From Patescibacteria group bacterium (lineage in GTDB: Bacteria > Patescibacteriota > Microgenomatia > Levybacterales > UBA12049): a stretch of 64,000 nucleotides of DNA. Below are positions 11-30,862 of this stretch, in pieces. The translations under genes and the position numbers were made by a program. Below the pieces are notes generated by a model. That model did no database searches. It was not told the DNA's origin and saw nothing but the letters and a program-made list of their open reading frames with translations. The stretch spans positions 792 through 64,791 of the forward strand of contig JBBTVD010000002.1 of NCBI GenBank assembly GCA_038063415.1, read 5' to 3'. How positions within the stretch are numbered: the stretch's first letter is position 1; each line of letters opens with the position of its first letter.

Positions 11-1735
11 ATGAATTTTTTTAAAAAACTTTTACCATTTATTATTATCCTTACACTTTCTTACTGGGCCATAAAGCCACTCTTTCTGCCAGGGTTTTTC
101 CCTATGCATGATGATACGCAAGTAGCTCGAGTTTTTGCAATGCAACAATCGCTCACTGATGGGATGTTCCCTGTTCGGTGGGTTTCTGACTTGGGCTACG
201 GGTATGGGTATCCCATCTTTAATTTCTACGCGCCACTTTCCTATTATGTCGGAGCTTTTTTTGATCTCATAGGCTTTGATACCCTTAGCGCGACCAAAAT
301 AACGATGGGTATTGGTATTGTGGCAGCTGGTATCTTTATGTATTTGCTTGCCAGCAAATTCTTTGGAAGGCGTGCGGGAATTATTGCTGGACTATTGTAT
401 CTCTATGCACCCTATCATGCTGTTGAAATCTATGTACGAGGTGATGTGGCCGAGTTTTGGGCATATGCATTTATTCCACTTGTTTTTTATGGATTCTACT
501 CACTCTCTCTTTCCCTTCTTGAAAAAAAGAACATCCAGTTATGGCTTTGGATAAGTGTAAGTGCTTTTGCGTATGCCGGGCTTATCTTATCGCATAATTT
601 GACAGCCTTTATGGTTACTCCTTTCCTTGGTGTTTTTGTCTTTTTGCTTTTCCTTTTTGCAAAGAAAAAGATTGGATGGAAAAAAGCATCGATTCTTTTA
701 AGTGGGTTGGTTATAGGCGTACTGATCTCAGCTTTTTACTGGTTGCCGACGCTTGCGGAAATGCGTTACACCAATATCCTTTCACAAGTTGGGGGAACAG
801 CAAATTATGCAGATCATTTTGTCTGTCCGAGACAACTCTGGGAAAGCCCCTGGGGATTTGCTGGGACTGCACCAGGTTGTACTGATGGAATGTCTTTTGC
901 ACTTGGTAAGTTACAGATACTTTTTGTCTTACTGGCAATGATTGCTTCCTGCATCTTTTGGAGACGTGAGGTAACTCGGATAAGATTTGTCTGGCTTACA
1001 CTCGTCGAGTTTATTTTTGTTATTTTCTTAATGCTTCCGTGGTCTCAGTTCTTGTGGGATATTGTGCCTCTTATGTCATTTTTTCAATATCCCTGGCGCT
1101 TTCTTATTCTGGCATCCTTTTTTAGCGCTTTTTTAGGAGGATTTGTTTGGAAATGTGTTGAAGGTGTTTTTGCAAAAAAGAAAGTCTTATTGTCCGCTGG
1201 CACGATCATTCTCATTTACACCATTATTTTTTTCAACGCAGCTGTTTTTGTTCCGCAAACGATACTAACTCGTTCTGCATCCGATTACACATCGCCTCTT
1301 GCTCTTCGTTGGTATGCATCAGAACTTACTCATGAATATCTACCACCAGCCTTTAGCGAACCAGAGAAGCAAGCAGATGTCCCTTTACGAAAATTAGTAC
1401 CCAACCCTATCGTATCGATTCACTCTTTGGATGAAAAAACACAACAGATAACAATGATTCTTACTGCAAGAGAAAAGACGAGTTTGGTCGTTAACCAGGC
1501 ATATTTCCCTGCGTGGCAGTTATTTATTGATGAGGAGAAGCGCCCATATCGTTTTTTTGACAAAGGGATTATCTTAACTATTCCAAAAGGGAAACATGAC
1601 GTTGTTCTCAAATATGTTGAAACACCAATCGAAAAGATAGGAAATGCCTTGTCTCTTACTGGCATTGGGATCCTAATTCTTGGTATAATCTCTCACAGAA
1701 GAAGAAATAAGACGTATGGCAAGAAAACTACCTGA
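11..1735 (+). CDS. Polytopic membrane protein, YfhO-like / GT-C-fold putative lipid-linked glycosyltransferase
   Basis: 574 aa ORF with about 12 hydrophobic helices and a soluble C-terminal domain. The C-terminal motif (AYFPAWQLF...PKGKHDVVLKY) resembles the YfhO-family C-terminus. Paralogous in style to ORF 7953..10265. Confidence 0.5.
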   Translation: MNFFKKLLPFIIILTLSYWAIKPLFLPGFFPMHDDTQVARVFAMQQSLTDGMFPVRWVSDLGYGYGYPIFNFYAPLSYYVGAFFDLIGFDTLSATKITMGIGIVAAGIFMYLLASKFFGRRAGIIAGLLYLYAPYHAVEIYVRGDVAEFWAYAFIPLVFYGFYSLSLSLLEKKNIQLWLWISVSAFAYAGLILSHNLTAFMVTPFLGVFVFLLFLFAKKKIGWKKASILLSGLVIGVLISAFYWLPTLAEMRYTNILSQVGGTANYADHFVCPRQLWESPWGFAGTAPGCTDGMSFALGKLQILFVLLAMIASCIFWRREVTRIRFVWLTLVEFIFVIFLMLPWSQFLWDIVPLMSFFQYPWRFLILASFFSAFLGGFVWKCVEGVFAKKKVLLSAGTIILIYTIIFFNAAVFVPQTILTRSASDYTSPLALRWYASELTHEYLPPAFSEPEKQADVPLRKLVPNPIVSIHSLDEKTQQITMILTAREKTSLVVNQAYFPAWQLFIDEEKRPYRFFDKGIILTIPKGKHDVVLKYVETPIEKIGNALSLTGIGILILGIISHRRRNKTYGKKTT

Positions 1736-2435
1736 ACTTTCTCTTTTTTTTCCATTTTGGAATGAAGAATCAAATATTGAACACGTGGTGACAACTGCTC
1801 TTCCCATTGCGGAAAAAGTGGCCGATAAATGGGAAATGCTGCTTATTGACGATGGTTCTTCTGACAATACACTTGAAATTGCTAAAAAACTTGCCAAAAA
1901 AGACAAGCGTATCAAAGTTATTAGTCATCAACCAAATAGAGGCTATGGGGCTGCGTTAACTTCTGGGTTTGCACAGGCAAAGTATGCCTATATTGTCTTC
2001 ACAGATGGAGATGCACAGTTTGATTTTGCTGAAGTAAGTAAATTTATTGAAAAAATCGATAACAAAGACATTGTTATTGGTTTTCGTAAAAAAAGAAGAG
2101 ACAATAACCGTATCAAGAGATTGCTTCTTATGAACTTACTAAAAATGTGGGATTTCCTTCTTTTTCACTTTTCTTATCGTGATATCGATTGTGGATTTAA
2201 GATGTTTCGACGGGAGGCTATCAGAACGTTACTTCCACTACGTTCTGAAGGAGCAATGATTACCACAGAAATTTTGGCAAAAGCAAAAAGAAAAAAATTG
2301 TCGATAGCTGAAATAGGTGTAACACATTATCCTCGCTTACACGGAAATCAGAGTGGTGCCAATATCCCAGTCGTAATTCGGGCTATTCTGGAAAGCTTCA
2401 TCTTGTGGTACGATTTACATTATGGAAGAACTTGA
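1716..2435 (+). CDS. GT2 glycosyltransferase, Dol-P/Und-P-sugar synthase-like (DPM1-like, soluble)
   Basis: N-terminal FFPFWNEE...LLIDDGSSDNT and FTDGDAQFD(DxD)-type motifs typical of GT2. Overlaps the upstream gene by 20 nt. Confidence 0.75.
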   Translation: MARKLPELSLFFPFWNEESNIEHVVTTALPIAEKVADKWEMLLIDDGSSDNTLEIAKKLAKKDKRIKVISHQPNRGYGAALTSGFAQAKYAYIVFTDGDAQFDFAEVSKFIEKIDNKDIVIGFRKKRRDNNRIKRLLLMNLLKMWDFLLFHFSYRDIDCGFKMFRREAIRTLLPLRSEGAMITTEILAKAKRKKLSIAEIGVTHYPRLHGNQSGANIPVVIRAILESFILWYDLHYGRT

Positions 2436-3876
2436 TATCGCAACAGTGGTAAAGCGTTCCATTCGTGGTGTGCTTGCCCTTGTCTCCCGCTCAATTGTGA
2501 TCCAGGGCATCAGTTTGCTAACTGCTTTGCTGCTTTTTGGGTTACTTGATGAGTCTGATATTGGTATTTTTGCAGTTGTTTCAGCATCACTCGCTTTCCT
2601 TACCTATTTTTCAGACATTGGTCTGGCCGCGGCTCTGATTCAGAAAAAAGAGTCACTCACAACAGATGACCTTCGTACCACTTTTACCATACAACAGATA
2701 CTGGTTGTATTACTTGTTCTCATTGCATTTCTCCTGTCAGGGTTTTTGGGAGCAATGTATCATTTAAATAGCGAAGGGATTCTTCTTTTCCAAGCTTTAG
2801 TAGTTGCCTTTTTTCTGGCATCACTTAAGACAATCCCTTCAATTATTCTTGAAAGAAATCTTCAGTTTGAAAGGTTAGTTTTGCCACAAGTTTTTGAAAC
2901 GCTTGCGTTTAGTGGGGTAGTGCTCTATTGTGCTTTCCATGGCTACGGAATCATGAGCTACACCTATGCGGTTCTAGCTCGGGGAATTGTTGGTCTTATT
3001 GCTATTTATTGTATAGCTCCGTGGAGGATTGGTTTTACCTTTTCAAAAAGTGTCGCTAGGAAACTGTTGTCATTTGGTGTCCCTTTCCAAGCCAATAGCA
3101 TTCTTGCACTTCTCAAAGATGATTTGCTAACCCTCTATCTAGGTATCGTTTTGCCTTTTGCTCAGGTTGGCTATATTGGCTTTGCACAAAAGCTTGCTTT
3201 TACCCCGCTACGACTGGTGATGGACAATATTATTCGTATCACGTTTCCTACTTTTTCTCGTCTTGCGCACGAACCTACGAGTCTGGGTAAGGCAATTGAA
3301 AAGTCTCTCTTTGTGACGTTGGCATTAATTTTACCGGCATTAACAGGTGTAGTGATTCTTGCACCATACCTGATTGAGTATGTCCCTAAATACCAGAAAT
3401 GGGAACCAGCATTGGTTGCTTTAACTTTTTTTGCCATCAACGCTGCTTTTTCTTCGTTATCAACGCCACTTACCAATGCGCTTAATGCTATTGGCAAAGT
3501 CAAAGTGACACTCTATCTGATGGTTTTCTGGACAGTACTTACTTGGGGCATAACGCCGCTTGCGATCATGCAATTTGGTTTTAATGGTGTTGCCTATACC
3601 TCCGCACTTGTTGGGACAACTGCTGTCATTGTTGTGGCCGTCGTAAGACGGTATATTCAGTTTCGTCTCGGTAACATTATCTGGGTACCGTTGCTAGCAA
3701 CAGCGATTATGGGTATTGTACTTTTCTTCATAAGTGCTATCGTTATTACAAACATCCCGATGCTTTTTGTCGCTATAGGTATCGGAACGGTAGTCTATTT
3801 TGGTACGCTTTTTGCTCTTGGCAAACAACATATCATTGAAGATGTTCGGATGATTGCACTAAATTTAAGAAAATGA
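2422..3876 (+). CDS. Wzx-like oligosaccharide flippase / polysaccharide biosynthesis protein (MOP superfamily)
   Basis: 484 aa, about 12-14 TM helices, typical size and hydropathy of O-antigen flippases. Embedded among glycosyltransferase genes. Confidence 0.65.
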   Translation: MEELDIATVVKRSIRGVLALVSRSIVIQGISLLTALLLFGLLDESDIGIFAVVSASLAFLTYFSDIGLAAALIQKKESLTTDDLRTTFTIQQILVVLLVLIAFLLSGFLGAMYHLNSEGILLFQALVVAFFLASLKTIPSIILERNLQFERLVLPQVFETLAFSGVVLYCAFHGYGIMSYTYAVLARGIVGLIAIYCIAPWRIGFTFSKSVARKLLSFGVPFQANSILALLKDDLLTLYLGIVLPFAQVGYIGFAQKLAFTPLRLVMDNIIRITFPTFSRLAHEPTSLGKAIEKSLFVTLALILPALTGVVILAPYLIEYVPKYQKWEPALVALTFFAINAAFSSLSTPLTNALNAIGKVKVTLYLMVFWTVLTWGITPLAIMQFGFNGVAYTSALVGTTAVIVVAVVRRYIQFRLGNIIWVPLLATAIMGIVLFFISAIVITNIPMLFVAIGIGTVVYFGTLFALGKQHIIEDVRMIALNLRK

Positions 3877-4781
3877 AAATTTCTGTCGTAATTTCAACAT
3901 TTAATAACGAAAAACAGATTGAAACATGCCTCAAATCAGTAGCGTGGGCAGATGAGATTGTGGTAGTTGACGATGGTTCAACTGACAAAACGCTTGAGAT
4001 TGTCAAAAAATACACGTCTCAGATTTATCATCATAAAAGTGTCGGTTATGTCGAGCCAACGCGAAATTTTGCTATCAAAAAAGCAGCTGGGGATTGGATT
4101 CTTATCGTTGACGCTGATGAAGAAGTCCCAGAAAGTCTTGCCAAAAAACTCCGTGCAATTGCAGACACTTCTTCTGAAATAACACACGTACTTCTCCCAA
4201 GAAAAAACATGATCTTTGGAAAATGGATACAACATACTGGTTGGTGGCCAGATCATCTGATTCGTTTTTTTAAGAAAGGATCCGTCACTTGGCAAGATGA
4301 GATTCATAGCATTCCCAAAACAACAGGGGAGAGTATGACGTTGGATGGTGAATCAAACGGGCTTATTCATCATCATTACCAGGCGATAACGCAATTTCTT
4401 CACAAGAATTTAGAACAATATGCTCCTCAAGAAGCAAAAGAACTATTGGAGAAAGGTTATCGCTTTTCAGCAGTAGACGTGATTCGTTTCCCAACGCGGG
4501 AGTTTCTTAGTCGATATTTTGCCCGCGAAGGGTACAAAGACGGGCTACATGGTCTGATTCTCTCGCTTCTAATGGCTGTGTATCATTTTGTTATTTTCTT
4601 ACATCTTTGGGAAGCAAATAAGTTTACGCAAGTTGATGAGAAAACACTTTCCAAAAATATTAAGGATGAAGCAAATTCAATGAAAAAAGAGTTTATCTTT
4701 TGGTTTAACAAACAACAAGTAGATAAAGCAGCAACGCCTCTTAAAAAATTTCTCTTAAAAGTAAAAGGAAAGCTTCAGTAA
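3873..4781 (+). CDS. GT2 glycosyltransferase (WaaE/KdtX-like)
   Basis: MKISVVISTFNNEKQIETCL...VVVDDGSTDKT...IVDADE motifs. ATGA overlap with the previous gene. Confidence 0.8.
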   Translation: MKISVVISTFNNEKQIETCLKSVAWADEIVVVDDGSTDKTLEIVKKYTSQIYHHKSVGYVEPTRNFAIKKAAGDWILIVDADEEVPESLAKKLRAIADTSSEITHVLLPRKNMIFGKWIQHTGWWPDHLIRFFKKGSVTWQDEIHSIPKTTGESMTLDGESNGLIHHHYQAITQFLHKNLEQYAPQEAKELLEKGYRFSAVDVIRFPTREFLSRYFAREGYKDGLHGLILSLLMAVYHFVIFLHLWEANKFTQVDEKTLSKNIKDEANSMKKEFIFWFNKQQVDKAATPLKKFLLKVKGKLQ

Positions 4782-4788
4782 TTAAATT

Positions 4789-5700
4789 ATGAAAAAAATT
4801 GCTATTGTAACCGTTAATTATAATACGGCTGATGAAACGAAAAAATTACTCGTTTCTCTCGAAAAGATTAAGAAGGATACTATTTCTCTTGAAGTTATTG
4901 TGGTTGATAATGGTTCCAAAGAGCGGTTGGTGCTTGATCCAAAAGATTTCTCTTACCAACTACAACTGCTTTATTCAGAAGAAAATACTGGCTTTACTGG
5001 TGGCTATAATAGGGGTATTAGACAAGCGCTTGTCGATGGCGCTGAGTATCTGTTACTTATTAATAACGATACCATAGTCGATCCCTTGGTACTTACCAAG
5101 CTACTTGAACCCTTTGAAACAGATAAAAAAATAGGAATAACCGTTCCCAAAATTTACTTTGCCCGGGGACATGAATTTCATAAAGGTCGTTACACAGAAA
5201 AAGACTTAGGAAGAGTATTTTGGTATGCTGGAGGAGCAATGGATTGGGATCATGTGATGAGCCGCCATCGAGGAGTTGATGAAGTTGATCACGGTCAGTA
5301 TGATGTGACTGAACAAACTGGTTTTGCTACTGGTTGTTGCTTGCTCGTCAAACGTGAAGTTTTTAAAAAAGCAGGACTCTTTGCTGATAACTATTTCCTA
5401 TACTTTGAAGATGCAGATTTTACCCAACGAGTGAAGCAATTAGACTATGACATTTTGTATGTCCCAGCGGCAATCATCTGGCATAGTAATGCTGGTTCCA
5501 GTGGTTCAGGAGGTGAGCTTCATGATTATTTTTTGACTCGTAACAGAATGCTCTTTGGGATGAAGTATGCACCACTTCGAACAAAAATTGCTCTAGTAAG
5601 AGAAAGTATCCGCCTGCTTAATCAAGGTAGACCCTTTCAAAAAAAAGGAATACAGGATTTTTATCTCAGGAAATTTGGAAAGGGGAGTTTTTTTGATTAA
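4789..5700 (+). CDS. GT2 glycosyltransferase (rhamnosyltransferase-like)
   Basis: IAIVTVNYNTADETKKLL...VVDNGS...YFEDADF motifs of GT2. Confidence 0.8.
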   Translation: MKKIAIVTVNYNTADETKKLLVSLEKIKKDTISLEVIVVDNGSKERLVLDPKDFSYQLQLLYSEENTGFTGGYNRGIRQALVDGAEYLLLINNDTIVDPLVLTKLLEPFETDKKIGITVPKIYFARGHEFHKGRYTEKDLGRVFWYAGGAMDWDHVMSRHRGVDEVDHGQYDVTEQTGFATGCCLLVKREVFKKAGLFADNYFLYFEDADFTQRVKQLDYDILYVPAAIIWHSNAGSSGSGGELHDYFLTRNRMLFGMKYAPLRTKIALVRESIRLLNQGRPFQKKGIQDFYLRKFGKGSFFD

Positions 5701-5703
5701 TAT

Positions 5704-6450
5704 ATGACAAAATTATCAGCTGTTATCTTAACCAAAAATGTCGAAAATCTGATCGCGGATTGTATTGATTCGCTTTCTTTTTGTGATGAGGTGATCATTA
5801 TTGATGATGGATCCACTGATCGTACGGCAGATATTGCCAAACTTCTTGGGGCAAGTGTTTACCAATTTACTGGAGAGAAATTCTCAGACAAAAGAAACTA
5901 TGCCTTGCGAAAGGTAAAAAGTAAGTGGGTTGTGTATATAGATGCAGATGAGAAAGTATCTTCAGAGCTAAAAAATTCAATTTTACAGGCAGTAAATCAA
6001 GAACGAAATCCGATTTCTGCCTATCGTATCAGAAGACAGAATTTTTATCTTGGAGACTACGTATGGCCACAAATTGAACTCTTAGAAAGACTCTTTAAAA
6101 AAGCGAATCTTGAAGCATGGTATGGGGATGTCCATGAGACAGCAAAAGTAACGGGTAGTATAAGTGAACTTGAAGGATTACTTTTTCATTATACGCATCG
6201 TGATTTAACTTCTATGGTGAATAAGACTATCCAGTGGTCCCAGATTGAAGCAAATTTGCGCTTTCAAGCACGTCATCCTAAAATGTCCTGGTGGCGTTTT
6301 TACCGCGTAATGTTTACGGGATTTTATGATTCTTATGTCAAACAAAAAGGCTACAAAGTAGGAACCTCAGGGCTTATTGAAAGTATCTATCAGGGATTTA
6401 GTATGTTTATTACTTATGCAAGACTGTGGGAGATGCAGAAGGGTAAATAG
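5704..6450 (+). CDS. GT2 glycosyltransferase (WaaE/KdtX-like), paralog of 3873..4781
   Basis: LSAVILTKNVENLIADCIDSL...IIIDDGSTDRT...IDADE motifs. Confidence 0.8.
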   Translation: MTKLSAVILTKNVENLIADCIDSLSFCDEVIIIDDGSTDRTADIAKLLGASVYQFTGEKFSDKRNYALRKVKSKWVVYIDADEKVSSELKNSILQAVNQERNPISAYRIRRQNFYLGDYVWPQIELLERLFKKANLEAWYGDVHETAKVTGSISELEGLLFHYTHRDLTSMVNKTIQWSQIEANLRFQARHPKMSWWRFYRVMFTGFYDSYVKQKGYKVGTSGLIESIYQGFSMFITYARLWEMQKGK

Positions 6451-6478
6451 ATCCTGAAACGAGTTCAGGATGACAGGG

Positions 6479-6736
6479 TTATTCAACTTTTTTGGTCGTA
6501 AAGGTGTTCTTGAACCAACCCTTAATTTCTGCGAAGGTTAATCGTTTCTTTGCAAAGCGGAACAGATAAATCAGATCTAAAATACCAATCGTATTAAGGA
6601 CAAGAATAACCACAAACCAATTCCTCTGCTTTGCATGGGCTGCTCGCCAAAGTGCTATTCCTTTCCAAATCATTGCCCAAACCATAAGGACATAGATGAG
6701 GATTGTTTCGCCAAGCGGTGGAGGAGTTCCATTCAT
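6479..6736 (-). CDS. Small two-TM membrane protein (CPR-type conserved small protein, function unknown)
   Basis: 85 aa ORF on the opposite strand between co-directional GT genes. Two hydrophobic helices and a WAMIWKGIALWRAAHAKQRNWF motif that looks conserved rather than random. Confidence 0.4.
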   Translation of the reverse strand: MNGTPPPLGETILIYVLMVWAMIWKGIALWRAAHAKQRNWFVVILVLNTIGILDLIYLFRFAKKRLTFAEIKGWFKNTFTTKKVE

Positions 6737-6800
6737 AATTGTATCCTACCATGACTGTGGGTGCTATGCAAGTAGTAATGAAACTTGATACAATCGAACT

Positions 6801-7865
6801 ATGCACATTGGCATTTATGATCCATATCTTGACGATTTAGGTGGAGGAGAAAAATATATGATGACGATTGCCGAGTGTCTGAGTCATCAGCATGATGTCG
6901 ATATCTTTTGGGATAATGCGTCAGATCTGATAGCAGTTGCTACGCGGTTCTCTCTTGATGTATCTACTATCAAGATCGTCCCCAATGTCTTTGCCCAAAC
7001 AATTCCTCTGTGGAAACGACTGCTTGTCACTCGAAAGTACGATGTCATTATTTTTTTAAGCGATGGGAGTATTCCTCTTGTGCTCTCAAAAAAACTCCTC
7101 GTGCATATCCAGCAACCTTTGCAGAGCGCTGATCAATCGTCTATCAAAAGAAAGAGAATCACAAAGATTTTTTATAATTCTCTTTTTACCAGGAAATACA
7201 ATCAGAAACTTTTTACGCATATCCCAAGTATGGTTTTGTATCCTCCTGTTGTTATCAAATCAGTTCCTGTCTCCAAAGAAAATATTATTTTGCATGTTGG
7301 GAGATTTCGGGTAAATAGTGAGTGGGAAGGAGATTATAAAAAACAATTTGTCATGGTTGAATCATTCAAAAAAATGATAGATACTGGAGTTACGGGGTGG
7401 AAATTTGTCTTAGCGGTCAGTCTTCGTGCGGAGGATGCTGAACAATTTGCACGGTTACGTCACAATGCCAAAGGATACCCTATCGAATTTCTTATTGACG
7501 TACCCAATGATGCTCTTTGGAAGACATATAATAAAGCAAAAATATACTGGCATGCTTCAGGCTATGGAGAAGATCTATCAGCACATCCTGACTATGCAGA
7601 ACATTTTGGGATTTCGACAGTCGAAGCAATGGGAGCAGGAGTTGTTCCGATAGTCATCAATGCGGGGGGGCAGACGGAAATTGTCGAAAATGGTAAGGAT
7701 GGATTGCTTTGGAACACGTTGGAAGAGTTAGTAAGTAAAACAAAAAAGCTTATGCATGATCAAAAATTATGGCAACAGTTATCGCTCAACGCAAGGGAAA
7801 AAGCCCAAAAATTTACCAAAGAGCAATTTTGTAGAGATGTACAAAAGCTAGTAAGTGAATCTTAA
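6801..7865 (+). CDS. GT4 glycosyltransferase (group 1, RfaG-like)
   Basis: C-terminal ...HFGISTVEAMGAGVVPIV...GGQTEIV typical GT4 nucleotide-sugar binding region. Contains a G7 homopolymer at 7664-7670. Confidence 0.75.
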   Translation: MHIGIYDPYLDDLGGGEKYMMTIAECLSHQHDVDIFWDNASDLIAVATRFSLDVSTIKIVPNVFAQTIPLWKRLLVTRKYDVIIFLSDGSIPLVLSKKLLVHIQQPLQSADQSSIKRKRITKIFYNSLFTRKYNQKLFTHIPSMVLYPPVVIKSVPVSKENIILHVGRFRVNSEWEGDYKKQFVMVESFKKMIDTGVTGWKFVLAVSLRAEDAEQFARLRHNAKGYPIEFLIDVPNDALWKTYNKAKIYWHASGYGEDLSAHPDYAEHFGISTVEAMGAGVVPIVINAGGQTEIVENGKDGLLWNTLEELVSKTKKLMHDQKLWQQLSLNAREKAQKFTKEQFCRDVQKLVSES

Positions 7866-7952: not shown

Positions 7953-10265
7953 ATGAAAAAATTTTTGCCAATTATCATTCTCCTCGTAAGTATCCTTTTC
8001 TTCTTTCAGCCGTTTTTCCTTCAAGGAAGGGTTCCAATTCCTGCTGATACTATTGTGGGGCTCTATCATCCATTTCGTGATCTGTATGCGGCTGAGTATC
8101 CCAATGGTGTCCCGTATAAAAACGCTCTCCTTACTGATCCTGTCCGCCAACAATATCCCTGGAAGCATTTGGCAATCGGGCAGGAATCTCGTATGACCCT
8201 TCCTCTCTGGAATCCCTATGCGCTGGCCGGTACACCGCTTTTGGCAACCATGCAGGGAGGGGTGCTTTATCCACTCAACATTGTCTTTTTTATCATGCCT
8301 TTTACTTCTGCCTGGGGAGTATTTATTTTTTCACAACAAGTACTTGCAGGACTTTTTCTTTTCTTGTACCTGCGTAATCTCAAACTAAGTAAGCTATCGA
8401 GTCTCTTTGGTGCGATTACCTATTCCTTTTGTGGCTTTGTCATAGCTTGGCTTGAATGGGGGACGCTGGTACACGTCGCAGCATGGTTGCCCTTGATTCT
8501 CTATTGTATTGATAATATTTTTGTTTCCTATCTACATGATCATGCATTAGAATTTGATGAGGATAGTAAAAAGCTCAAGAATAGAAAAGTTGCTGGATGG
8601 TTCTTCCTCTATGCCTTTGCCTTAACCGCAGCATTTTTTGCTGGACATATCCAAACATTTTTTTACCTCTGTCTCTTTACCTGGAGTTATTTTATTGCCA
8701 GGTGGATCCAGTACGGAAGAACAAGGAAAATATTTCTCCTTTTTATTCTGGTAAACCTCTTCTTTGCCGTTATAACTATCGTTCAATGGCTTCCGACACT
8801 TCGGTTTATTAGTGAGAGTGCCAGGTCAATTGATCTTGATTGGCATAAAGAAGGGTGGTTTATCCCCTGGCAGCATCTTATTCAATTTATTGCTCCTGAT
8901 TTCTTTGGGAACTCGGCAACCCTTAATTATTGGGGTGTATGGAACTATGGAGAACATATTGGGTATATTGGGATTATTCCGTTAGTCTTTGCTTTTTTTG
9001 CACTCTTTCAGAGACATGATAGAAAGACCCTTTTTTTTGGCACGGCTTTTTTTGTTTCGTTAGTTTTTGCCCTGCCCACATTCTTTGCCATGCTTCCGTA
9101 TCTTCTGCAACTCCCTTTTCTTTCGACCGCACAGCCGACAAGATTACTTTTTATCATTGATTTTTCCCTTGCAGTTTTGGCAGCTCTTGGATGTGAATAC
9201 TATCTCAGAATATTGCACAAAAAAAGAATGCTCTGGACGCTTCTCTTTTTCTTTATTATTTTTGTTGGTCTCTGGGGAGGTGTTCTGTTTGGTCAGGAGG
9301 TTTTCTCACTTACCCAGGAAGATCTGGCAACTGCCAAAAGAAATCTTTTCCTTCCAACAGCAATTTTTGCAGGTGCAGCACTCTTTTTTGTGAGCATGCT
9401 TTTTATTAAACATCGGGGAGTAAGACAGGTGCTCGTGGGTATATTACTTGTGATTACTATTGTTGATTTACTTCGTTTTGGCAACAAATTTACTCCTTTT
9501 ACCGATGCCGCTTATCTTTTCCCAAAGACTAAAATCCTTTCATTTTTGCAGGAACAACAATCGTATCCTCGTATTATGACGACTGATGACCGGATCCTTC
9601 CTGCGAATTTCTCAGTGATGTATGGACTTTTTGGTGTTGATGGTTATGATCCCTTATATTTGCAGCGATATGGGGAATTACTCGCTGCAATAAAACGTGA
9701 CCGTCCTGATATTGCTCCACCATTTGGATTTAATCGTATCGTATCATTACATAACTATGAATCTCGGTTAACTGATTTGCTCGGAGTAAAATACATCTTA
9801 AGTCTTTCTGAACTCTCTTCTCCTAAATTGCGCTACATAATGAGTGAAGGAGAAACTCGGTTGTATGAAAATACCCAAGCTTTTCCACGAGCTTTCTTTG
9901 TTGAAAACCTCATTCAGACGACTAGCAAAGAAGCCTCAATCCAAAAACTTTTTGATGAGAGCATTGATTTACGAAAAACAGCTATTGTCGAGCACAATAA
10001 AGAAGTTCCGCAAAGGACGTATTCAGTAGGTAACGCAGCTATCGTATCCTATTCATCAAATGATATCACTGTACGAGTAAAAAATAATCAGGAAGGATTT
10101 CTAGTCTTTATGGACAGTTTTTATCCAAGTTGGCGAGCAAAAATATGTGATACGCAAAACAATAATTGTGCAGAGATTTTTGTCTACAGAACAAATTATA
10201 CGTTTAGAGGGGTAATTGTCCCTGCTGGAGAATACAACCTTCTCTTTTACGTTAATGCGCTATAA
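7953..10265 (+). CDS. YfhO-family polytopic membrane protein (GT-C-like, putative glycosylation of envelope polymer)
   Basis: 770 aa. N-terminal TM bundle plus a large C-terminal domain ending ...FYPSWRAK...RGVIVPAGEYNLLFYV, like the YfhO C-terminus. IAPDFFGNSATLNYWG motif. Confidence 0.55.
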   Translation: MKKFLPIIILLVSILFFFQPFFLQGRVPIPADTIVGLYHPFRDLYAAEYPNGVPYKNALLTDPVRQQYPWKHLAIGQESRMTLPLWNPYALAGTPLLATMQGGVLYPLNIVFFIMPFTSAWGVFIFSQQVLAGLFLFLYLRNLKLSKLSSLFGAITYSFCGFVIAWLEWGTLVHVAAWLPLILYCIDNIFVSYLHDHALEFDEDSKKLKNRKVAGWFFLYAFALTAAFFAGHIQTFFYLCLFTWSYFIARWIQYGRTRKIFLLFILVNLFFAVITIVQWLPTLRFISESARSIDLDWHKEGWFIPWQHLIQFIAPDFFGNSATLNYWGVWNYGEHIGYIGIIPLVFAFFALFQRHDRKTLFFGTAFFVSLVFALPTFFAMLPYLLQLPFLSTAQPTRLLFIIDFSLAVLAALGCEYYLRILHKKRMLWTLLFFFIIFVGLWGGVLFGQEVFSLTQEDLATAKRNLFLPTAIFAGAALFFVSMLFIKHRGVRQVLVGILLVITIVDLLRFGNKFTPFTDAAYLFPKTKILSFLQEQQSYPRIMTTDDRILPANFSVMYGLFGVDGYDPLYLQRYGELLAAIKRDRPDIAPPFGFNRIVSLHNYESRLTDLLGVKYILSLSELSSPKLRYIMSEGETRLYENTQAFPRAFFVENLIQTTSKEASIQKLFDESIDLRKTAIVEHNKEVPQRTYSVGNAAIVSYSSNDITVRVKNNQEGFLVFMDSFYPSWRAKICDTQNNNCAEIFVYRTNYTFRGVIVPAGEYNLLFYVNAL

Positions 10266-18529: not shown

Positions 18530-19699
18530 CTAATAAACAATCGTATACATGCGTGCGGTATCTATTTCTTGTATAAGTTGTATTTTCCCTGCTTTCTCCA
18601 TATTGGTTAATGCGCTTCGAATATTTTGTGGACTTTCGAGCAGTTGTGTCACCCATTGTCGATCATCAACAGTAATAATAAGGTATTGAGGTTTTCCAGA
18701 GAAGTCAAGCCACCAACAGGTATTTTCCCCGCATTTTTCTTGTGCTTCTTTCCCCGATTTTTGTCTGGGCCAGAGGAGATAAATTTCTTTTCTATGCGTT
18801 AAGTGAGGAACGAGATTTTGCGTAGTGGCGATACTGGCATCAGTCGGAATTTCTTTGAAGAGTGAATCAGTATCTTCCATCCATGAAGCCCTCTGCCAGT
18901 ATCCTTGTTTGACAAGTTTGTTTAACGGGAAATGAAAGACATATTGCAAAACAATTGCCGTAAGGACAAGTACCCCTACCGGAAACAGTAAATCAATTTT
19001 CTTTTTTCTCAAAAAGACAAGGGCATCAAGCGTCCCCAGACTTAAAAAGACTGCCAGGATAGCACGATGATGAAGATATGGTGTGAGCATGTGACCGAAT
19101 TCGCTTGCTGCAGCAAAGTATTGGGAGAGGTCAAGAGTCACGGCAAAGATACTTCCAGGGGAAAGAAGCGGCAAAAAAGCAAAACTACTAAATGAGTAAA
19201 GCCAAACAAGACGTTTCTCATGCGTATCAAAAAATTGCGTTGCGATAGACAAAGGATCATGAGCAACTTTTGGTTGATATTGGTAGCCTACAGGAGAAAG
19301 CAAGCTGACAATGCCAACCATAATAAGACTTGCCACAATGCCGCCAAGAATAAAGAGTAATGCCTTTTTTCGGTATTGCTTCTGAAAGAAATAGATACAA
19401 CCAAGTGATGCCAACGCAATTCCCATATTTTCCTGGGTTAACAGCATGACAGCAAGCGTTCCCCAGAAGAGTTTTCTCTTTCTGGCTTCAAAAAAATACG
19501 CAAGCCAGGCGAGGAGTCCAACGTCAGAGATCCAAAGGGTGAAGTCAGAACCACCGCGTATGATCATTGGAAAGAAACTACCATTGATGAAAATGGCCAT
19601 ATCAAAAGAGAGTATAAAAACGCCTATGACAAAATAACCAAGGTTGAAGAGGTAAATGGGGTCGAGACATATACCACGACGTATATCTACGATTCCCAT
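18530..19699 (-). CDS. Polytopic membrane protein with C-terminal soluble domain (DUF2079-like, unverified); start uncertain
   Basis: ORF track gives 18530..19840 with a TTG start. The Met at 19699 (MGIVDIRR...) or later Mets near 19447 are more plausible. The first ~85 codons run antisense to YD-repeat-like coding in the + frame. Confidence 0.4.
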   Translation of the reverse strand: MGIVDIRRGICLDPIYLFNLGYFVIGVFILSFDMAIFINGSFFPMIIRGGSDFTLWISDVGLLAWLAYFFEARKRKLFWGTLAVMLLTQENMGIALASLGCIYFFQKQYRKKALLFILGGIVASLIMVGIVSLLSPVGYQYQPKVAHDPLSIATQFFDTHEKRLVWLYSFSSFAFLPLLSPGSIFAVTLDLSQYFAAASEFGHMLTPYLHHRAILAVFLSLGTLDALVFLRKKKIDLLFPVGVLVLTAIVLQYVFHFPLNKLVKQGYWQRASWMEDTDSLFKEIPTDASIATTQNLVPHLTHRKEIYLLWPRQKSGKEAQEKCGENTCWWLDFSGKPQYLIITVDDRQWVTQLLESPQNIRSALTNMEKAGKIQLIQEIDTARMYTIVY

Positions 19700-21016: not shown

Positions 21017-21017
21017 G

Positions 21018-24464: not shown

Positions 24465-24467
24465 TAA

Positions 24468-25720: not shown

Positions 25721-25747
25721 ATGCTACGTTGGTAGAAGTAAGGGGGA

Positions 25748-25795
25748 GGTGTAAACTTAGACCACCCGTCGGGTGGTAATTACCGGGTGGTAATT
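25748..25795. repeat. REP-like element (forward orientation), head-to-head with 25691-25720
   Basis: GGTGTAAACTTAGACCACCCGTCGGGTGGTAATTACCGGGTGGTAATT. Hairpin ACCACCCG-T-CGGGTGGT; palindrome GGTAATTACC. Confidence 0.6.
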
Positions 25796-26088
25796 ATTTT
25801 ATTGGATACTTGCAAATATATTTGTATTGTTTATTCAAATTGTTATCTTTATTTTATATGTGATTTTAGTTGCAGATATTGGTTTTAAGCTTGATCCTGA
25901 AGTAGAGAACTCAATAGTTCCATAATTTTTTGCTTCAGCGAGCAGCATCTCTCTTTCTTACTTTGCATTCAGTAAGTTACGTTATTCGATTATTAAACTT
26001 GTACTGACATTCTTACTTGGAATAGTGTTATCTGTTATTGGATTTGTCGCAGTAATAATAGCTTTTCAAGCAATTTAGCTTAATATGA

Positions 26089-26208
26089 CTACAGTATGAT
26101 GCCAATGGGAATATGACATCGGATGGGACCAAATGCTATGAGTACAATGAAGCCAATCAGATGGTGAAGGTGAAGAAGTGCAGTAACAACCAGACGATAG
26201 CAGAGTAA
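26089..26208 (+). pseudogene. Remnant of a YD (RHS) repeat, 39 codons without start
   Basis: Translation LQYDANGNMTSDGTKCYEYNEANQMVKVKK... fits the YD repeat consensus YDxxGN..S....Y.Y.......V. Confidence 0.45.
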
Positions 26209-26467
26209 ATACTCATAAATCTCCCTTCATCAGCTCACTACGCCTATTCCATTCTTTCCAACCTATAAGAGCAATAGTCGTCATTAATGGTATGGCTAAA
26301 ATCCACAAGGCTAAATATACCCCAATCTTGAGGCTAGACACAACATTTTCAACTCTTTCCACAAGACGTGTGCTCATGGTTAGAGTCGTTGGTAAAGTTG
26401 CTGCATTCATATGTCCCGTAGTATATCGACATGTTACTATTTTGTCAATAGTTATTGGTGTAAGAGG

Positions 26468-26515
26468 TGGTGTAAATCCATACCACCCGTCGGGTGGTAA
26501 TTGCGGGTGGTAATT
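26468..26515. repeat. REP-like element (forward orientation)
   Basis: GGTGTAAATCCATACCACCCGTCGGGTGGTAATTGCGGGTGGTAATTG. Confidence 0.6.
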
Positions 26516-26609
26516 GTTATCTCAATCAGCCCTAGGGGTTGCATTCGTTTCTAGAATACGGGCGCCGAATGGGTTTGACACATATTTTTATAAGGATTAT
26601 ACTCATGCA

Positions 26610-26861
26610 ATGAAAGAAAAACAGCCAACAAGAAGAGAGGCAATCGGTCTCGGCTTAAGTGCGATGGTAATTGCAACCAGCTGCAGTTCAGAAGGGCAAC
26701 CTTCTTCTGAAGCATTGAACAGCCAAGATTGGCTATTAAGGTCAGACGATCCTAATCTTATTCATACGGTAGAAAATTTTCTTCTTGAAACTAGCAATAC
26801 GTTATCGCTGTTGAAGCTGCACAACCCTATTCCAAACTACCTTCAACAGCGCTCCCTATAG
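26610..26861 (+). CDS. Small putative Tat-signal lipoprotein
   Basis: MKEKQPTRREAIGLGLSAMVIATSCSS: twin-arginine motif, hydrophobic core and a lipobox-like ATSC. The ORF-track start at 26514 overlaps REP DNA. Confidence 0.35.
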   Translation: MKEKQPTRREAIGLGLSAMVIATSCSSEGQPSSEALNSQDWLLRSDDPNLIHTVENFLLETSNTLSLLKLHNPIPNYLQQRSL

Positions 26862-27206
26862 AACAAAAGCACTTTAGATTTAAGCAAGAAAACAATACCT
26901 ATGATCAGTTCAATTAAGAAGTCCCCAAACAGCTACAAAACCAGCTTCTAGCGAGATATGGGGATCAATAGATAATGGAGAAACACGTGTAACCATCCTT
27001 GTCCGAAGTGATGAATATGGGGTTACAGTAGGAAGATCACATCAAAATTCACACACCGATGTAAGTCCAACTCCAACTCCACAATCTTCAGCTATTGATC
27101 CAGAAAATGCCGAAAATGCCTTGGAACAAGCACGTATCTTCTTCGCTGATATACAACAAGCAGCAGAATCTTAGCATAGATTCTTGCTCCGGTCAGGTTG
27201 CCACTT

Positions 27207-29122: not shown

Positions 29123-29167
29123 CTGTGTCATCGTAGAGAGAATTTTATTCATATAATATATAGGAAT

Positions 29168-30862
29168 GTGGCCAATATGAATAGATTTATCTCCCGGTAT
29201 TATTTACTGATCCTTATACTTATCTTCGCTACATTTTTACGTTTTTGGCTACTCGGACAAGTTCCTGCAGGGCTACACGAAGATGAAGCAGCATATGGCT
29301 ACAATGCCTACTCCCTTCTTCTGACGGGTAACGATGAGCATGGAAAATCCTTTCCGATAGTACTCGAATCATTTGGGGAATACAAACCTGCGTTATATGC
29401 ATATCTTACGATTCCATGGATTGTAGTTTTTGACCTCACTCCCTTTGCTGTTCGTGCTACGTCAGCACTTTTTGGAGTTTTTTCTATTATTATGGTCTAT
29501 TTACTTGCAAAAAAACTGTTACAGAACACAACGATAGCGCTTATCGCGGCGGGTATGATTGCTCTTTCTCCCTGGCATTTGACGCTCTCAAGGACGACAA
29601 GTGAAGTAGTTGTCTCGGTATTCTTTCTTTTGGTATTTGTCTATGCGGCGCTTTCATTAAAAGATACCTTTAATAAATGGTGGCTAATTACCGCAGTTCT
29701 TACTGGTATATTGGCTGTAGAAAGTTATACAGCCGCTCGTTTCTTTGTTGTTGCACTCGCTGCTTTAGTTTTTGTATTTTCATTCAAAAAAACACAGAAA
29801 AAGATACTCATTAACTGGACATTATTTTCTTTGTGTCTGTTTTTTATTGTGATGGGGTTAATTATCAGCACGTTGGATTCAGCTACTCGGTTTAATCAAA
29901 TCAGCATTGTCTCCACGCCAGAAACAAAATTAGTTCTGGAAGAGCAGATACGGGAAGATGACCAAACTGAACCTTTAATAACTCGTTTTTTCCATAACAA
30001 AGTGTTAAATTATTCACGGACATTTATTGAAAACTATGAAGATTACTTTACCATTGATTATCTTTTTTTGAATGGCGGAAGTCCTGTACGGGTAGATATC
30101 CCACAAAGTGGTTTACTCTATTCCTGGCAGTTTCCCTTTTTGCTTCTTGGTATATACGTTATAGTACGTCAGCGGATATCTTGTGGATATTTCCTTTTTT
30201 CCTGGTGGCTTTTACTGCTTTTTCCAGCTGCATTCACCTTTCATGAAATACCAAATATCTATCGGTCTTTGATTGTCTTGCCAGCGCTTCTTATGATACT
30301 TTCCCTGGGAATGTATCATTGTGGGAAATATGTTTTGGAAAAGAAAGGTCATCTTTTCTCTATTGCATCTATTCTTCTTTTACTATTTGTTATATCTTTG
30401 GAATTTATCTCTTTCCAACATCAATACTACATCCATCAAGAGAAGCATCAACCTTGGTATCGAGGATATGCATTTAAAGAACTGACAATAGCTTTGCAGG
30501 AATTATCCCCAAAATACAAAAAAATGATAATAACCAAAGGAATCGGAGGCGCTTACATTTCCCTTCTCTTTTATAGAAAATATGATCCTTTGACCTATCA
30601 ACAGGAGGGGTCTCCTGGGTACGATGGGTTTGACACCTATACTTTTGTTCCTATTGATTGCTCACTTAACGCGGGGGAAAAGGGTGAAGGGAAAGTAAAA
30701 GGGGAAAAGGGTGTTTTATATGTAGATCGTGGAGATTGTATCCTGGCAAAAAAAGATGTCAAAGTACTCAAAACAATTTATTGGCAGGATGGAAATCCTG
30801 CGGTTAGATTATTAGAATATATCCCCTCAAAAGCGGTATTGCCCCCTTTCAGGGATATCTAA
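29168..30862 (+). CDS. ArnT/PMT-family membrane glycosyltransferase, paralog 3
   Basis: LRFWLLGQVPAGLHEDEAAYGYNAYSLLLTGNDEHGKSFPIVLESFGEYKPALYAYL. Confidence 0.7.
   Translation: MANMNRFISRYYLLILILIFATFLRFWLLGQVPAGLHEDEAAYGYNAYSLLLTGNDEHGKSFPIVLESFGEYKPALYAYLTIPWIVVFDLTPFAVRATSALFGVFSIIMVYLLAKKLLQNTTIALIAAGMIALSPWHLTLSRTTSEVVVSVFFLLVFVYAALSLKDTFNKWWLITAVLTGILAVESYTAARFFVVALAALVFVFSFKKTQKKILINWTLFSLCLFFIVMGLIISTLDSATRFNQISIVSTPETKLVLEEQIREDDQTEPLITRFFHNKVLNYSRTFIENYEDYFTIDYLFLNGGSPVRVDIPQSGLLYSWQFPFLLLGIYVIVRQRISCGYFLFSWWLLLLFPAAFTFHEIPNIYRSLIVLPALLMILSLGMYHCGKYVLEKKGHLFSIASILLLLFVISLEFISFQHQYYIHQEKHQPWYRGYAFKELTIALQELSPKYKKMIITKGIGGAYISLLFYRKYDPLTYQQEGSPGYDGFDTYTFVPIDCSLNAGEKGEGKVKGEKGVLYVDRGDCILAKKDVKVLKTIYWQDGNPAVRLLEYIPSKAVLPPFRDI

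Follow-up and report, generated by a model that had tools for sequence, protein, structure and literature searches.

The combination of a soluble GT-A enzyme, a Wzx-type flippase and a GT-C glycosyltransferase is represented by GacI, GacK and GacL, and the general scheme has been reviewed (PMC8035078). The AglD, AglR and AglS proteins of Haloferax volcanii have been described as well, and there a DPM1-like GT2 loads polyprenyl phosphate, flipping has been linked to a Wzx-like protein and the transfer falls to a GT-C enzyme (PMC3871713). The window considered here, meaning the whole 64-kb stretch of DNA that was analysed, belongs to a MAG contig (NCBI) of a "Patescibacteria group bacterium", an uncultured CPR organism; WWE3, Shapirobacteria, Levybacteria and Woesebacteria are the relatives named among its homologs. 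It is a surface-glycan island, real yet lineage-typical, in which 12 genes of GT-C type take up 21.7 of the 64 kb (34% of the DNA) and are accompanied by four predicted synthases of lipid-linked sugar donors (GT2) and two MOP/Wzx-type flippases (Table 1). Loci that hold relatives of these proteins have similar GT-C arrays and the window is therefore one case of a recurrent pattern. All ORFs named in a preliminary description were recovered at their coordinates and its count of at least eleven GT-C proteins holds, while the subfamily labels of 11, 47412, 49532 and 56268 had to be corrected and the feature, which had been confined to positions 11-30862, reaches about 61.4 kb. None of the large membrane proteins matches a transporter family; they have either GT-C Pfam matches or a GT-C-like fold.

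Table 1. Features of the 64-kb window. ORFs are referred to in the text by their first coordinate.
Feature	Coordinates	Strand	Basis
PTPS_related GT-C, 574 aa, about 10 TM + C-terminal TM	11..1735	+	PF10131 33.5 bits
Soluble GT2, polyprenyl-phosphate-sugar synthase type, 239 aa	1716..2435	+	PF00535 108.9 bits
MOP/Wzx-type flippase, 484 aa	2422..3876	+	Polysacc_synt_3 148.7, Polysacc_synt 62.4 bits
Cytoplasmic glycosyltransferases: GT2 at 3873, 4789, 5704; GT4 at 6801	3873..7865	+	Pfam
YfhO-family GT-C, 770 aa, 13 hydrophobic segments	7953..10265	+	PF09586 77.9 bits
GT2, 317 aa	10274..11227	+	Pfam
Soluble GT2, polyprenyl-phosphate-sugar synthase type (AglJ/DPMS-like), 239 aa	11224..11943	+	PF00535 125 bits
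PMT_2-type GT-C, subfamily B, 503 aa	12014..13525	+	PF13231 31.1 bits
PMT/ArnT-like GT-C, subfamily A, 556 aa	13606..15276	+	PF13231 35.2 bits; DE + FGDFKPPLY
PMT/ArnT-like GT-C, subfamily A, 561 aa	15306..16991	+	Paralogy to 13606; DE + FGDYKPALY
PMT_2-type GT-C, subfamily B, 497 aa	16975..18468	-	PF13231 30.9 bits
DUF2079-type GT-C	18530..19699	-	PF09852 70 bits
Diverged PMT_2-like GT-C, subfamily A, 588 aa	27207..28973	-	BLAST to paralogs, homologs' PF13231
PMT/ArnT-like GT-C, subfamily A, 564 aa	29168..30862	+	PF02366 36.9, PF13231 35.3 bits; DE + FGEYKPALY
Second glycan cluster, cytoplasmic part	33335..47409	+	Pfam
MOP/Wzx-type flippase, 432 aa	35348..36646	+	Polysacc_synt_3 37.5 bits
Polyprenyl-phosphate-sugar-synthase-type GT2, 257 aa	36639..37412	+	BLAST to 11224, 1716, 60420
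AftD-like compact GT-C, family C, about 704-707 aa	47412..49535	+	AF2 + Foldseek
AftD-like compact GT-C, family C paralog, 762 aa	49532..51820	+	Similarity to 47412
Distant AftD-like GT-C, 740 aa	56268..58490	+	hhalign, AF2 + Foldseek
Conserved membrane partner of family C, 352 aa	58494..59552	+	Neighbourhood conservation
Membrane-anchored ArnC/GtrB-like polyprenyl-phosphate-sugar synthase, 313 aa	60420..61361	+	PDB, NCBIfam
EamA/DMT transporter adjoining ArnC-like GT2	61369..62244	+	PF00892 141.6 bits

The first genes of the window form a compact module (11, 1716 and 2422) which, by analogy, resembles streptococcal GacI/GacK/GacL. As in the GacI/GacJ/GacK/GacL system of S. pyogenes, the genes for a GT-C protein (11), a TM-less GT-A enzyme (1716) and a Wzx-type flippase (2422) overlap, the run 11/1716/2422/3873 doing so by 20, 14 and 4 nt in turn, and the cluster also holds a YfhO protein and GT-Cs of PMT_2 type, as in Gram-positive multi-component systems. 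The window differs from Gac in having twelve GT-Cs per four synthases, in its CPR host and in the helper genes, as Pfam and profile searches of the 64 kb found neither a GacJ/DUF2304-type helper nor a GtrA-type flippase. The two Wzx-like flippases reported earlier, 2422 and 35348, both match Polysacc_synt_3. Proteins of this type may alternatively flip Und-PP-oligosaccharide alone.

Three donor synthases (1716, 11224 and 60420) had been proposed and matches to PDB chains agree with this, the best solved relatives of these three being DPMS (5MLZ), GtrB (5EKP), ArnC (9HWJ) and PpgS; the list had missed a fourth, 36639, whose BLAST alignments over about 200-240 aa to 11224 (5.5e-22), 1716 (1.1e-18) and 60420 (6e-19) are near full length. 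For 1716 the best PDB match is ArnC (8.7e-17), followed by GtrB and DPMS, and PgfS, AglJ and ArnC head its NCBIfam matches, which like those of the other GT2s all lie far under the equivalog cutoffs. The proteins 1716, 11224 and 36639 carry no TM helices, and neither do PpgS and human DPM1. By contrast, 60420 has two C-terminal hydrophobic segments and, like ArnC and GtrB, a TM hairpin region at its C-terminus.

Another of the synthase-type GT2s, 11224, matches DPMS 5mlz best in the PDB (9.6e-18, residues 1-217) and AglJ best in NCBIfam (1.9e-35). This, together with the failure of profile searches to find an initiating phosphoglycosyltransferase (PF00953/PF02397; ORFs of at least 150 aa and the gap ORFs tested in the 64-kb window), none having been noticed previously either, despite two Wzx-type flippases and about 17 cytoplasmic ORFs of GT families, two of them possible fragments, would suit an archaeal style of assembly. 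An AglJ-like GT2 (11224 or 1716) would then prime on polyprenyl monophosphate without such an enzyme, soluble GT2 and GT4 proteins would extend the glycan, a Wzx-type protein would flip it and a GT-C would transfer it en bloc, much as the Haloferax N-glycan is built on Dol-P with AglJ acting first (PMC3871713). Such assembly is improbable here, given that genes for phosphoglycosyltransferases frequently sit outside glycan clusters and the search covered 64 kb, that 11224 scores 122.7 against an AglJ equivalog cutoff of 325 bits, and that no oligosaccharyltransferase of the AglB/STT3 or PglB type was identified in the window of this bacterial host. We know of no bacterial precedent for such assembly.

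The membrane-anchored synthase, 60420, aligns over its full length with ArnC 9hwj, its best PDB match (1e-43, residues 2-291), and is followed by the EamA/DMT gene 61369, which may encode a candidate flippase; its position is not conserved in the related locus L082, where 60420 has an ortholog of 65% identity in the same position. With subfamily A being ArnT/PMT-like, this pair recalls ArnT/ArnC-type modification, in which a charged sugar is placed on a membrane lipid against cationic antimicrobial peptides. This is very unlikely to be the function of the island, as Pfam searches found no ArnA, ArnB or ArnD homologs in the window, 60420 scores 176.6 against the 529-bit equivalog cutoff of ArnC and twelve GT-Cs far exceed the need of such a system. 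It counts further against it that, to our knowledge, CPR bacteria have no lipid A.

The largest set of GT-Cs consists of six PMT/ArnT-like and PMT_2 paralogs in two subfamilies. Four ArnT/PMT-like proteins with a KPxLY loop had been described, and Pfam or paralogy places all four in subfamily A, with the motif (F-G-D/E-Y/F-K-P-x-L-Y) present in 13606, 15306 and 29168 and absent from 27207, which keeps the DE pair that is almost invariant after TM1 in the family-A alignment. 13606, listed as 13594 in the Pfam and BLAST searches, starts as in the gene call of locus L001; its paralog 15306 (40% identity, E 2.5e-106) scores 25.8 bits for PMT_2, 0.3 under the cutoff of 26.1 bits, and 19.4 bits for PMT. 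The Pfam search gave no match for 27207 itself, but BLAST links it to 13606 (E 2e-19), 29168 (E 5e-16) and 15306 (E 4e-10), at least 11 homologs among the matches listed (33-48% identity, down to E 1e-97) carry PF13231 and the name of one reads 'phospholipid carrier-dependent glycosyltransferase'. The two-paralog subfamily recognised earlier, 12014 and 16975, was confirmed as PMT_2 by Pfam and by a mutual BLAST match (E 1.5e-5). With ArnT (GT83) and PMT (GT39) these proteins share above-threshold profile matches, a first outer loop that carries the DE pair, and a layout in which about 10-12 TM segments precede a soluble C-terminal domain. They differ in having no MIR domains, in their number within one organism and in showing no detectable similarity to solved chains: PDB searches with the family A profile and 29168 matched no ArnT or PMT chain, and the DE region is covered by the Pfam PMT profile match only, with no PDB sequence match to GT39/GT83.

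These paralogs might act mainly in protein O-glycosylation, as do actinobacterial and eukaryotic protein O-mannosyltransferases, each with its own substrates among secreted proteins such as pilins and S-layer proteins. The PF02366 match in 29168 (weakly in 15306), the weak score of 29168 against NF058602, the Pmt model of actinobacteria (E 1.7e-4), the small secreted beta-rich proteins encoded inside the cluster (46184 on the minus strand, 55491 and 59752) and the pilin glycosylation predicted for Saccharibacteria (PMC11623550) all point this way. As the main function it is nevertheless rather unlikely, though the best placed of the alternatives, since PMT_2 also spans ArnT-like enzymes and others that modify teichoic acids or polysaccharides, for example GtlB (PMC8035078), MIR domains are missing, the many cytoplasmic glycosyltransferases and Wzx-type flippases suggest oligo- or polysaccharide assembly and the AftD-like members possess an AftD-type outer domain.

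The YfhO-like set of the preliminary description is reduced to 7953. ORF 11, which carries 'MHDD' after TM1, reaches only 20.1 bits in a C-terminal YfhO match (cutoff 28.5 bits) and exceeds the PTPS_related cutoff of 26.4 bits. The DUF2079-like assignment of 18530 stands, but the gene is probably 5'-truncated rather than intact: its PF09852 match opens at profile position 123 of 459 and its 5' end adjoins an RHS-repeat fragment on the opposite strand. The other three supposed YfhO proteins, 47412, 49532 and 56268, have zero Pfam matches even at E<=10, and AlphaFold models are closest to mycobacterial AftD.

Judged from these models and from sequence alignments, the three proteins are a previously unlabelled AftD-like family of GT-C enzymes. 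The AF2 model of 47412 (pLDDT 86.6) has AftD 6w98 as its top Foldseek match (E 1.2e-8, TM-score by query length 0.50) and the top 16 matches are all GT-C, while that of 56268 (pLDDT 87.9) matches AftD first (E 3.2e-7), then ArnT, PglB and AftA, the other significant matches also being GT-C enzymes. 49532 is 32% identical to 47412 (BLAST E 4e-109) and falls within the family C alignment A1, in which D38 of 47412 is invariant; the alignment of the 56268 family, A3, with invariant D31 and D63, aligns with A1 over 632 columns (hhalign probability 99.3%, E 9e-21). A distant homolog with PF11847 (GT-C_AftD), P0068, provides a sequence bridge to family C. In 47412 and 56268, as in AftD (PDB 6W98), a beta-rich outer domain comes after the N-terminal GT-C membrane domain, and this outer domain makes a polysaccharide acceptor likely for the AftD-like enzymes. 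The window proteins reach about half the length of AftD (700-760 aa and about 1,400 aa, respectively) and are about 11% identical to it; they are anchored by one C-terminal TM segment, do not match Pfam directly and are accompanied by a conserved membrane partner of 340-350 aa. This partner, 58494, likewise lacks Pfam matches at E<=10, and its homologs, 43% identical in L082 and 26% (E 7.5e-25) in a second related locus, L083, adjoin family C genes there. We know of no arabinogalactan or decaprenyl-phospho-arabinose pathway in CPR bacteria.

The second glycan cluster contains, by Pfam, epimerases/SDRs, GT2 and GT4 enzymes, four SAM methyltransferases and a rhamnosyl-O-methyltransferase-like protein, in an order mostly kept in L082. 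There, synteny extends to the MOP gene, the synthase-type GT2 (73% identical to 36639 and again directly after the MOP gene), two family C genes, the 56268-type and 58494-type genes and the ArnC-like GT2. In L083 the GT2 adjoining the MOP gene is not of synthase type, hence this adjacency is not universal.

The island quite probably works by multi-component transmembrane glycosylation, with donors, acceptors and activities that are predicted only. It is proposed that GT-A synthases load sugars onto polyprenyl phosphate and that flippases carry these lipid-linked sugars to the other side of the membrane; 2422 and 35348 are encoded beside two synthases, and the EamA protein 61369, beside a third, may share in this step. 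The twelve GT-Cs, one of which is probably dead, are assigned by fold or family and would transfer the sugars to outside acceptors through an acidic residue of the first outer loop; conserved acidic residues after TM1 are seen in subfamily A, family C, the 56268 family and ORF 11. One or two lipid-linked oligosaccharides, started by a priming enzyme encoded outside the window, would be assembled and modified by cytoplasmic enzymes of the GT2, GT4, methyltransferase and carbamoyltransferase classes. These glycans would be the likely acceptors or be co-transferred, and the PMT-like paralogs may have protein acceptors. The earlier suggestion of donor-synthase plus GT-C pairs needs correction, as four synthases to twelve GT-Cs do not make simple pairs. 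Since several GT-Cs would use each donor, it is most likely acceptor or linkage that sets the paralogs apart, as among the mycobacterial Aft, Emb and Pim GT-Cs, and O-glycosylation of proteins or envelope polymers would define the surface of the cell.

Twelve genes encoding GT-C-type glycosyltransferases, named here like all ORFs by their start position, together occupy 21.7 kb, equal to 34% of the window's length. An ORF check located every ORF cited in the preliminary description, and its reading of the enzyme class is supported by membership of GT-C Pfam families or by a GT-C fold. The end of the feature at 30.9 kb is not borne out, as the set of GT-C and synthase genes reaches approximately 61.4 kb. 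The membrane part of the GT-C fold is taken to be a polytopic N-terminal domain of about 8-13 TM helices; in a hydropathy scan 11 of the 12 proteins have 9-14 hydrophobic segments and the truncated DUF2079 protein (18530) has five. The same protein is the exception to the presence of acidic residues after TM1, in the first extracytoplasmic loop, which are found in the other 11. Structural comparison with solved GT-C enzymes covered 47412 and 56268, and the other ten proteins are assigned via Pfam families which we take to belong to the GT-C clan. All-against-all BLAST sorts the GT-C proteins into three groups, namely the PMT/PMT_2-type subfamilies A (13606, 15306, 29168 and 27207) and B (12014 and 16975), and family C (47412 and 49532, with a weak link to 56268).

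The gathering score of PMT_2 (PF13231) is reached by 12014, 16975, 29168 and 13594, the last being 13606 with an alternative start; 29168 matches both PMT (PF02366) and PMT_2, and 15306 lies 0.3 bit under the PMT_2 cutoff. The core of subfamily A (13594, 15306 and 29168) is held together by mutual BLAST E values of 1e-65 to 1e-106 and is joined by the diverged 27207 at 4e-10 to 2e-19, while the two members of subfamily B match each other at 1.5e-5. Nothing meaningful is found for 27207 in Pfam at E<=10. PF13231 is present in 11 of its homologs among the matches listed, down to E 1e-97 (33-48% identity), and one homolog bears the name 'phospholipid carrier-dependent glycosyltransferase'; its relatives come from Shapirobacteria, Levybacteria and Woesebacteria. 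An Asp-Glu pair after TM1 (D39 and E40) is at least 90% conserved in subfamily A (18-sequence alignment) and is covered by the PMT profile match of 29168, which spans residues 16-228. The DE...KPxLY motif that had been ascribed to all four members takes the form F-G-D/E-Y/F-K-P-x-L-Y in 13606, 15306 and 29168 and is absent from 27207. Searching the PDB with the subfamily A profile and with 29168 returned no solved ArnT or PMT chain by sequence at E<=1 to 10; DE and KP line up only weakly with those of an ArnT sequence when the two are aligned pairwise, which is a lead only.

The label YfhO holds for 7953 (PF09586, 77.9 bits), the sole YfhO match above gathering score in the window, and has to be withdrawn for ORF 11, 47412, 49532 and 56268. 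ORF 11 is a PTPS_related protein (33.5 bits, above cutoff) which matches YfhO with its C-terminal part only and below threshold (20.1 against 28.5). A YfhO identity of family C was rejected on the basis of an hhalign probability of 2.6% against 7953 and of no YfhO match at E<=10, and kinship of family C with ORF 11 was likewise rejected (hhalign probability 3.6%). 18530 matches DUF2079 (PF09852, 70 bits), though only over profile positions 123-406 of 459. Since its N-terminus fits the profile poorly and looks truncated, no loop-1 motif is assignable, and the 5' end of the gene overlaps a fragment of RHS repeats on the opposite strand. Judged from the sequence, 18530 is probably a dead, 5'-truncated pseudogene whose N-terminus is missing or replaced. 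A literature search for DUF2079 together with GT-C found no report.

The RHS-repeat fragment opens a stretch of decayed sequence, with GT-C genes on either side, whose contents look like the scrambled remains of a Tc-toxin/RHS locus and which includes approximately 2.7 kb devoid of recognisable genes (24.5-27.2 kb). This part holds no known RNA, as neither a tRNA scan nor an Rfam scan of the window gave a match. A palindromic repeat of 29 nt, GGTGTAAA-N6-CCACCC-N3-GGGTGG, flanks the ORF of an IS200-like Y1 transposase. It occurs in six copies where none would be expected by chance, and transposase and palindromes together resemble a REP/RAYT or IS200/IS605-type element.

Positions of individual features in the window and of their counterparts on other contigs
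Feature	Position	Strand	Remarks
DUF2079 gene 18530	18530-19840	-	
Decayed stretch	19742-27206		
RHS-repeat fragment	19742-21016		
GT2 with odd N-terminus	21396-22553		
SpvB fragment	22680-23069		
FG-GAP/TcdB-mid fragment	22960-23595		
Palindromic repeat	23576-26497		copies at 23576(-), 23668(-), 24468(+), 25693(-), 25748(+), 26469(+)
IS200-like Y1 transposase ORF	23793-24464	+	PF01797, 28 bits
Two toxin-antitoxin-like pairs	30913-31792 and 32609-33243 (-)		
Methyltransferase run	41122-47409		
Small beta-rich protein	46184-46561	-	
Start region of 47412 affected by database start	47412-47750		TM1 and invariant Asp of 'HDE'
Carbamoyltransferase cassette	53005-55416		
Small beta-rich protein	55491-56219		
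58494-type membrane protein	58494-59552; L082 17657-18682; L083 12114-13124		340-350 aa; no Pfam match
Small beta-rich protein	59752-60384		N-terminal hydrophobic segment
N-terminal GT4 ORF	62263-62835		190 aa; Glyco_transf_4 domain only
Full-length GT4 gene	62855-63973		

The proteins 47412, 49532 and 56268, together with the neighbouring membrane protein 58494, yield nothing meaningful in Pfam at E<=10, and a PDB search with the family C profile gave no match even at E<=1 to 10. 47412 and 49532 are close paralogs (BLAST E 4e-109), and an alignment of 24 family C sequences shows an invariant D38 (in 'HDE') just past TM1, followed by E39 with conservation of at least 90%. AlphaFold2 confidently models 47412 as a helical bundle (pLDDT 86.6, pTM 0.88). 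Among solved structures this model matches mycobacterial AftD best (6W98; E 1.2e-8; TM-score 0.50, normalised to the query), ahead of STT3, PglB, AglB, AftA, ArnT and DPY19; all of the top 16 matches are GT-C enzymes. 56268 is likewise modelled as a helical bundle (pLDDT 87.9) with AftD as best match (3.2e-7), ahead of ArnT, PglB and AftA. Its family, in which D31 and D63 are invariant, aligns profile-to-profile with family C at a probability of 99.3% (E 9e-21), the alignment extending across 632 columns. A sequence bridge from family C to AftD is provided by a distant homolog of 47412 (P0068, E 2e-16) that carries PF11847 (GT-C_AftD, 52.1 bits); none of the three window proteins matches PF11847 directly. 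On the strength of these models and profiles, 47412, 49532 and 56268 are predicted to be compact AftD-like GT-Cs and not YfhO proteins, that is, distant kin of AftD that would work alike, yet lie outside Pfam's AftD family. AftD itself is a protein of approximately 1,400 aa with several carbohydrate-binding modules, whereas the window proteins are half that length. With clustering at 50% identity, an exhaustive profile search collects 539 representatives at E<=1e-30, and relaxing the threshold to E<=1e-10 raises this to 3,417. In the absence of a Pfam model this makes the AftD-like family sizeable but unlabelled; it is currently annotated 'hypothetical', and the named relatives of 47412 come from candidate division WWE3. 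The NCBI record AAB553_00325, a MAG protein of a 'Patescibacteria group bacterium' that is 100% identical to 47412 and marks the window as CPR/Patescibacteria DNA, is called as 596 aa with a start that removes TM1 and the invariant Asp, while homologs cover 95-99% of a 704-707-aa form starting 2 nt past the upstream stop. Genes of the 58494 type adjoin family C genes in three loci, the window and two other contigs with family C homologs (L082 and L083). Their products begin with a single TM, continue with some 200 aa of outer domain and end in four to five TMs, and may serve as acceptor-binding or flippase partners of the AftD-like GT-Cs.

That three GT2s of the window are of the polyprenyl-phosphate-sugar-synthase type agrees with their best relatives in the PDB, as 1716, 11224 and 60420 match DPMS (5MLZ), ArnC and GtrB over the whole catalytic domain of roughly 200 or more residues (60420 matches ArnC over residues 2-291 at E 1e-43); this catalysis is predicted. 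A fourth, 36639, had been overlooked and is assigned to the type through BLAST clustering only (E ~6e-19 to 6e-22 over ~200-240 aa). The synthase-type GT2s match PF00535, and the C-terminal TM or hydrophobic hairpin of the GtrB/ArnC subtype is found in 60420 only, being absent from 1716, 11224 and 36639. PgfS, AglJ, ArnC, PpgS and a haloarchaeal Dol-P-hexose transferase stand at or near the top of their NCBIfam lists, with no equivalog-level match to ArnC, AglJ, PgfS or PpgS; since all scores fall far below the curated equivalog cutoffs, no specific sugar is assigned. Both Wzx-like flippases of the preliminary description are recovered as predicted MOP/Wzx-type proteins by Polysacc_synt_3/Polysacc_synt, 2422 with 148.7 and 62.4 bits and 35348 with 37.5 bits. 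No GtrA-type flippase or GacJ-like helper occurs among the window ORFs or the tested gap ORFs, the small proteins in the gaps being DUF5652, DUF5989 and SxtJ instead. An initiating phosphoglycosyltransferase (PGT) had been reported missing, and indeed neither PF00953 nor PF02397 is matched among window ORFs of at least 150 aa and the tested gap ORFs; the enzyme may be encoded elsewhere in the genome. An improbable alternative is that surface glycans are made with no PGT at all, AglJ-like GT2s priming polyprenyl monophosphate in the haloarchaeal way, cytoplasmic GTs extending the glycan and Wzx-type proteins flipping it. Some of the expanded GT-C set, the Pfam-less AftD-like family with its 58494-type partner among them, would then transfer oligosaccharides en bloc to proteins or polymers. 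If true, this would be an archaeal-style pathway within a bacterium.

A three-component set of GT-A synthase, flippase and GT-C encoded together is present in ORF 11 (GT-C), 1716 (soluble synthase-type GT2) and 2422 (Wzx-type), which overlap by 20 and 14 nt. Similarly, 35348 (Wzx-type) and 36639 overlap by 8 nt, and this pair is kept in L082, a contig with a 48%-identical homolog of 47412. Most of the gene order of window 35.3-61.4 kb recurs there, with MOP, an ortholog of 36639 (73%), epimerase, GTs, methyltransferases and a CmcI-like methyltransferase, then two family C genes, one gene each of the 56268 type and the 58494 type, and a 60420 ortholog (65%). In L083 the 58494-type gene comes after a family C gene, and the GT2 next to the MOP gene is not of synthase type, so the MOP-beside-synthase pattern is not universal. 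Two metagenomic contigs with subfamily A homologs have at least six GT-C genes in ~13 kb (L085) and seven PMT_2 genes in ~14 kb (L086), in tandem arrays of PMT_2/PTPS_related GT-C genes. These comparable arrays make the window one case of a recurrent pattern and no one-off, and a 27207 homolog on a further contig stands solitary amid housekeeping genes. In L085 a GT2 gene additionally precedes one for a DUF2304 protein, which may belong to the GacJ-type helper family; such a pair would resemble the GacI/GacJ arrangement, which the window is without. The literature searched yielded no report on CPR together with GT-C; it mentions only in passing that Peregrinibacteria and Saccharibacteria have several copies of 'dolichol-phosphate mannosyltransferase' genes (PMC4736985, PMC6031116), and glycosylation in Saccharibacteria has been called 'unexplored' (PMC11623550).

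GC content is ~0.40 up to ~36.6 kb and ~0.35 from there until ~60.4 kb; the step falls inside the second glycan cluster directly past 35348, and gene order across it is kept in L082. The cluster is preceded by two toxin-antitoxin-like pairs, lying between the glycan clusters with a Peptidase_C26 gene in between; one combines DUF6922 with an AbiEii nucleotidyltransferase, the other a PIN toxin with an RHH antitoxin. Four SAM-dependent methyltransferases form an unusual run together with a rhamnosyl-O-methyltransferase/CmcI-like protein, which points to a glycan with heavy O-methylation. Three small beta-rich proteins within the second cluster (46184, 55491 and 59752) have no convincing Pfam family, 59752 giving nothing meaningful at E<=10, and may be secreted, either as substrates of glycosylation or as proteins resembling lectins. 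The syntenic L082 lacks a cassette in which a carbamoyltransferase is joined by a DUF5989 peptide of 49 aa and an SxtJ-like membrane protein. Matches of the carbamoyltransferase in species-representative genomes (42-66% identity) are mostly non-CPR, with 60-66% in Deltaproteobacteria, Aquificae and Nitrospirae versus 46-49% in CPR, and as its closest genomic relatives are non-CPR the cassette was likely acquired horizontally. Towards the end of the window, an ORF limited to an N-terminal GT4 domain directly precedes a full-length GT4 gene and may represent either a gene fragment or one part of a split gene.

Multi-component transmembrane glycosylation is the best-supported model for the island by analogy with known systems. 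In the Gram-positive scheme a GT-A makes the C55-P-sugar, a GtrA- or Wzx-type protein flips it and a polymer on the outside receives the sugar through the action of a GT-C; the streptococcal variant uses the soluble GT-A GacI, the Wzx-type flippase GacK and the GT-C GacL (PMC8035078). The AglD/AglR/AglS set of Haloferax is analogous to the proposed system (PMC3871713). In the island, the GT-A synthases would produce polyprenyl-phosphate sugar, a flippase would move it across the membrane and the GT-Cs would transfer the sugar outside. What the sequences and models show is that the proteins belong to the respective families or folds, that acidic residues of loop 1 are conserved, and that the genes lie side by side and in syntenic order; from these we infer the donor chemistry (a lipid-phosphate-linked sugar), the flipping and the identity of the acceptors, and four donors would be shared among twelve transferases. 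The beta-rich outer domain suggests polysaccharide acceptors for the AftD-like proteins, and protein acceptors are possible for the PMT-like paralogs.

The window thus adds one more example, from a poorly studied lineage, to kinds of systems that are already known. A practical by-product is the Pfam-less AftD-like GT-C subfamily, which deserves its own model. CPR/Patescibacteria are mostly uncultivated and those in culture are attached to host cells (PMC11623550), and their surface chemistry is almost unknown. With 34% of the window given over to GT-C-type genes and similar arrays in the loci of homologs examined, diversification of surface glycans looks like a major investment for such small genomes, and the genes of the island become concrete candidates for a part in recognising hosts or evading phages.
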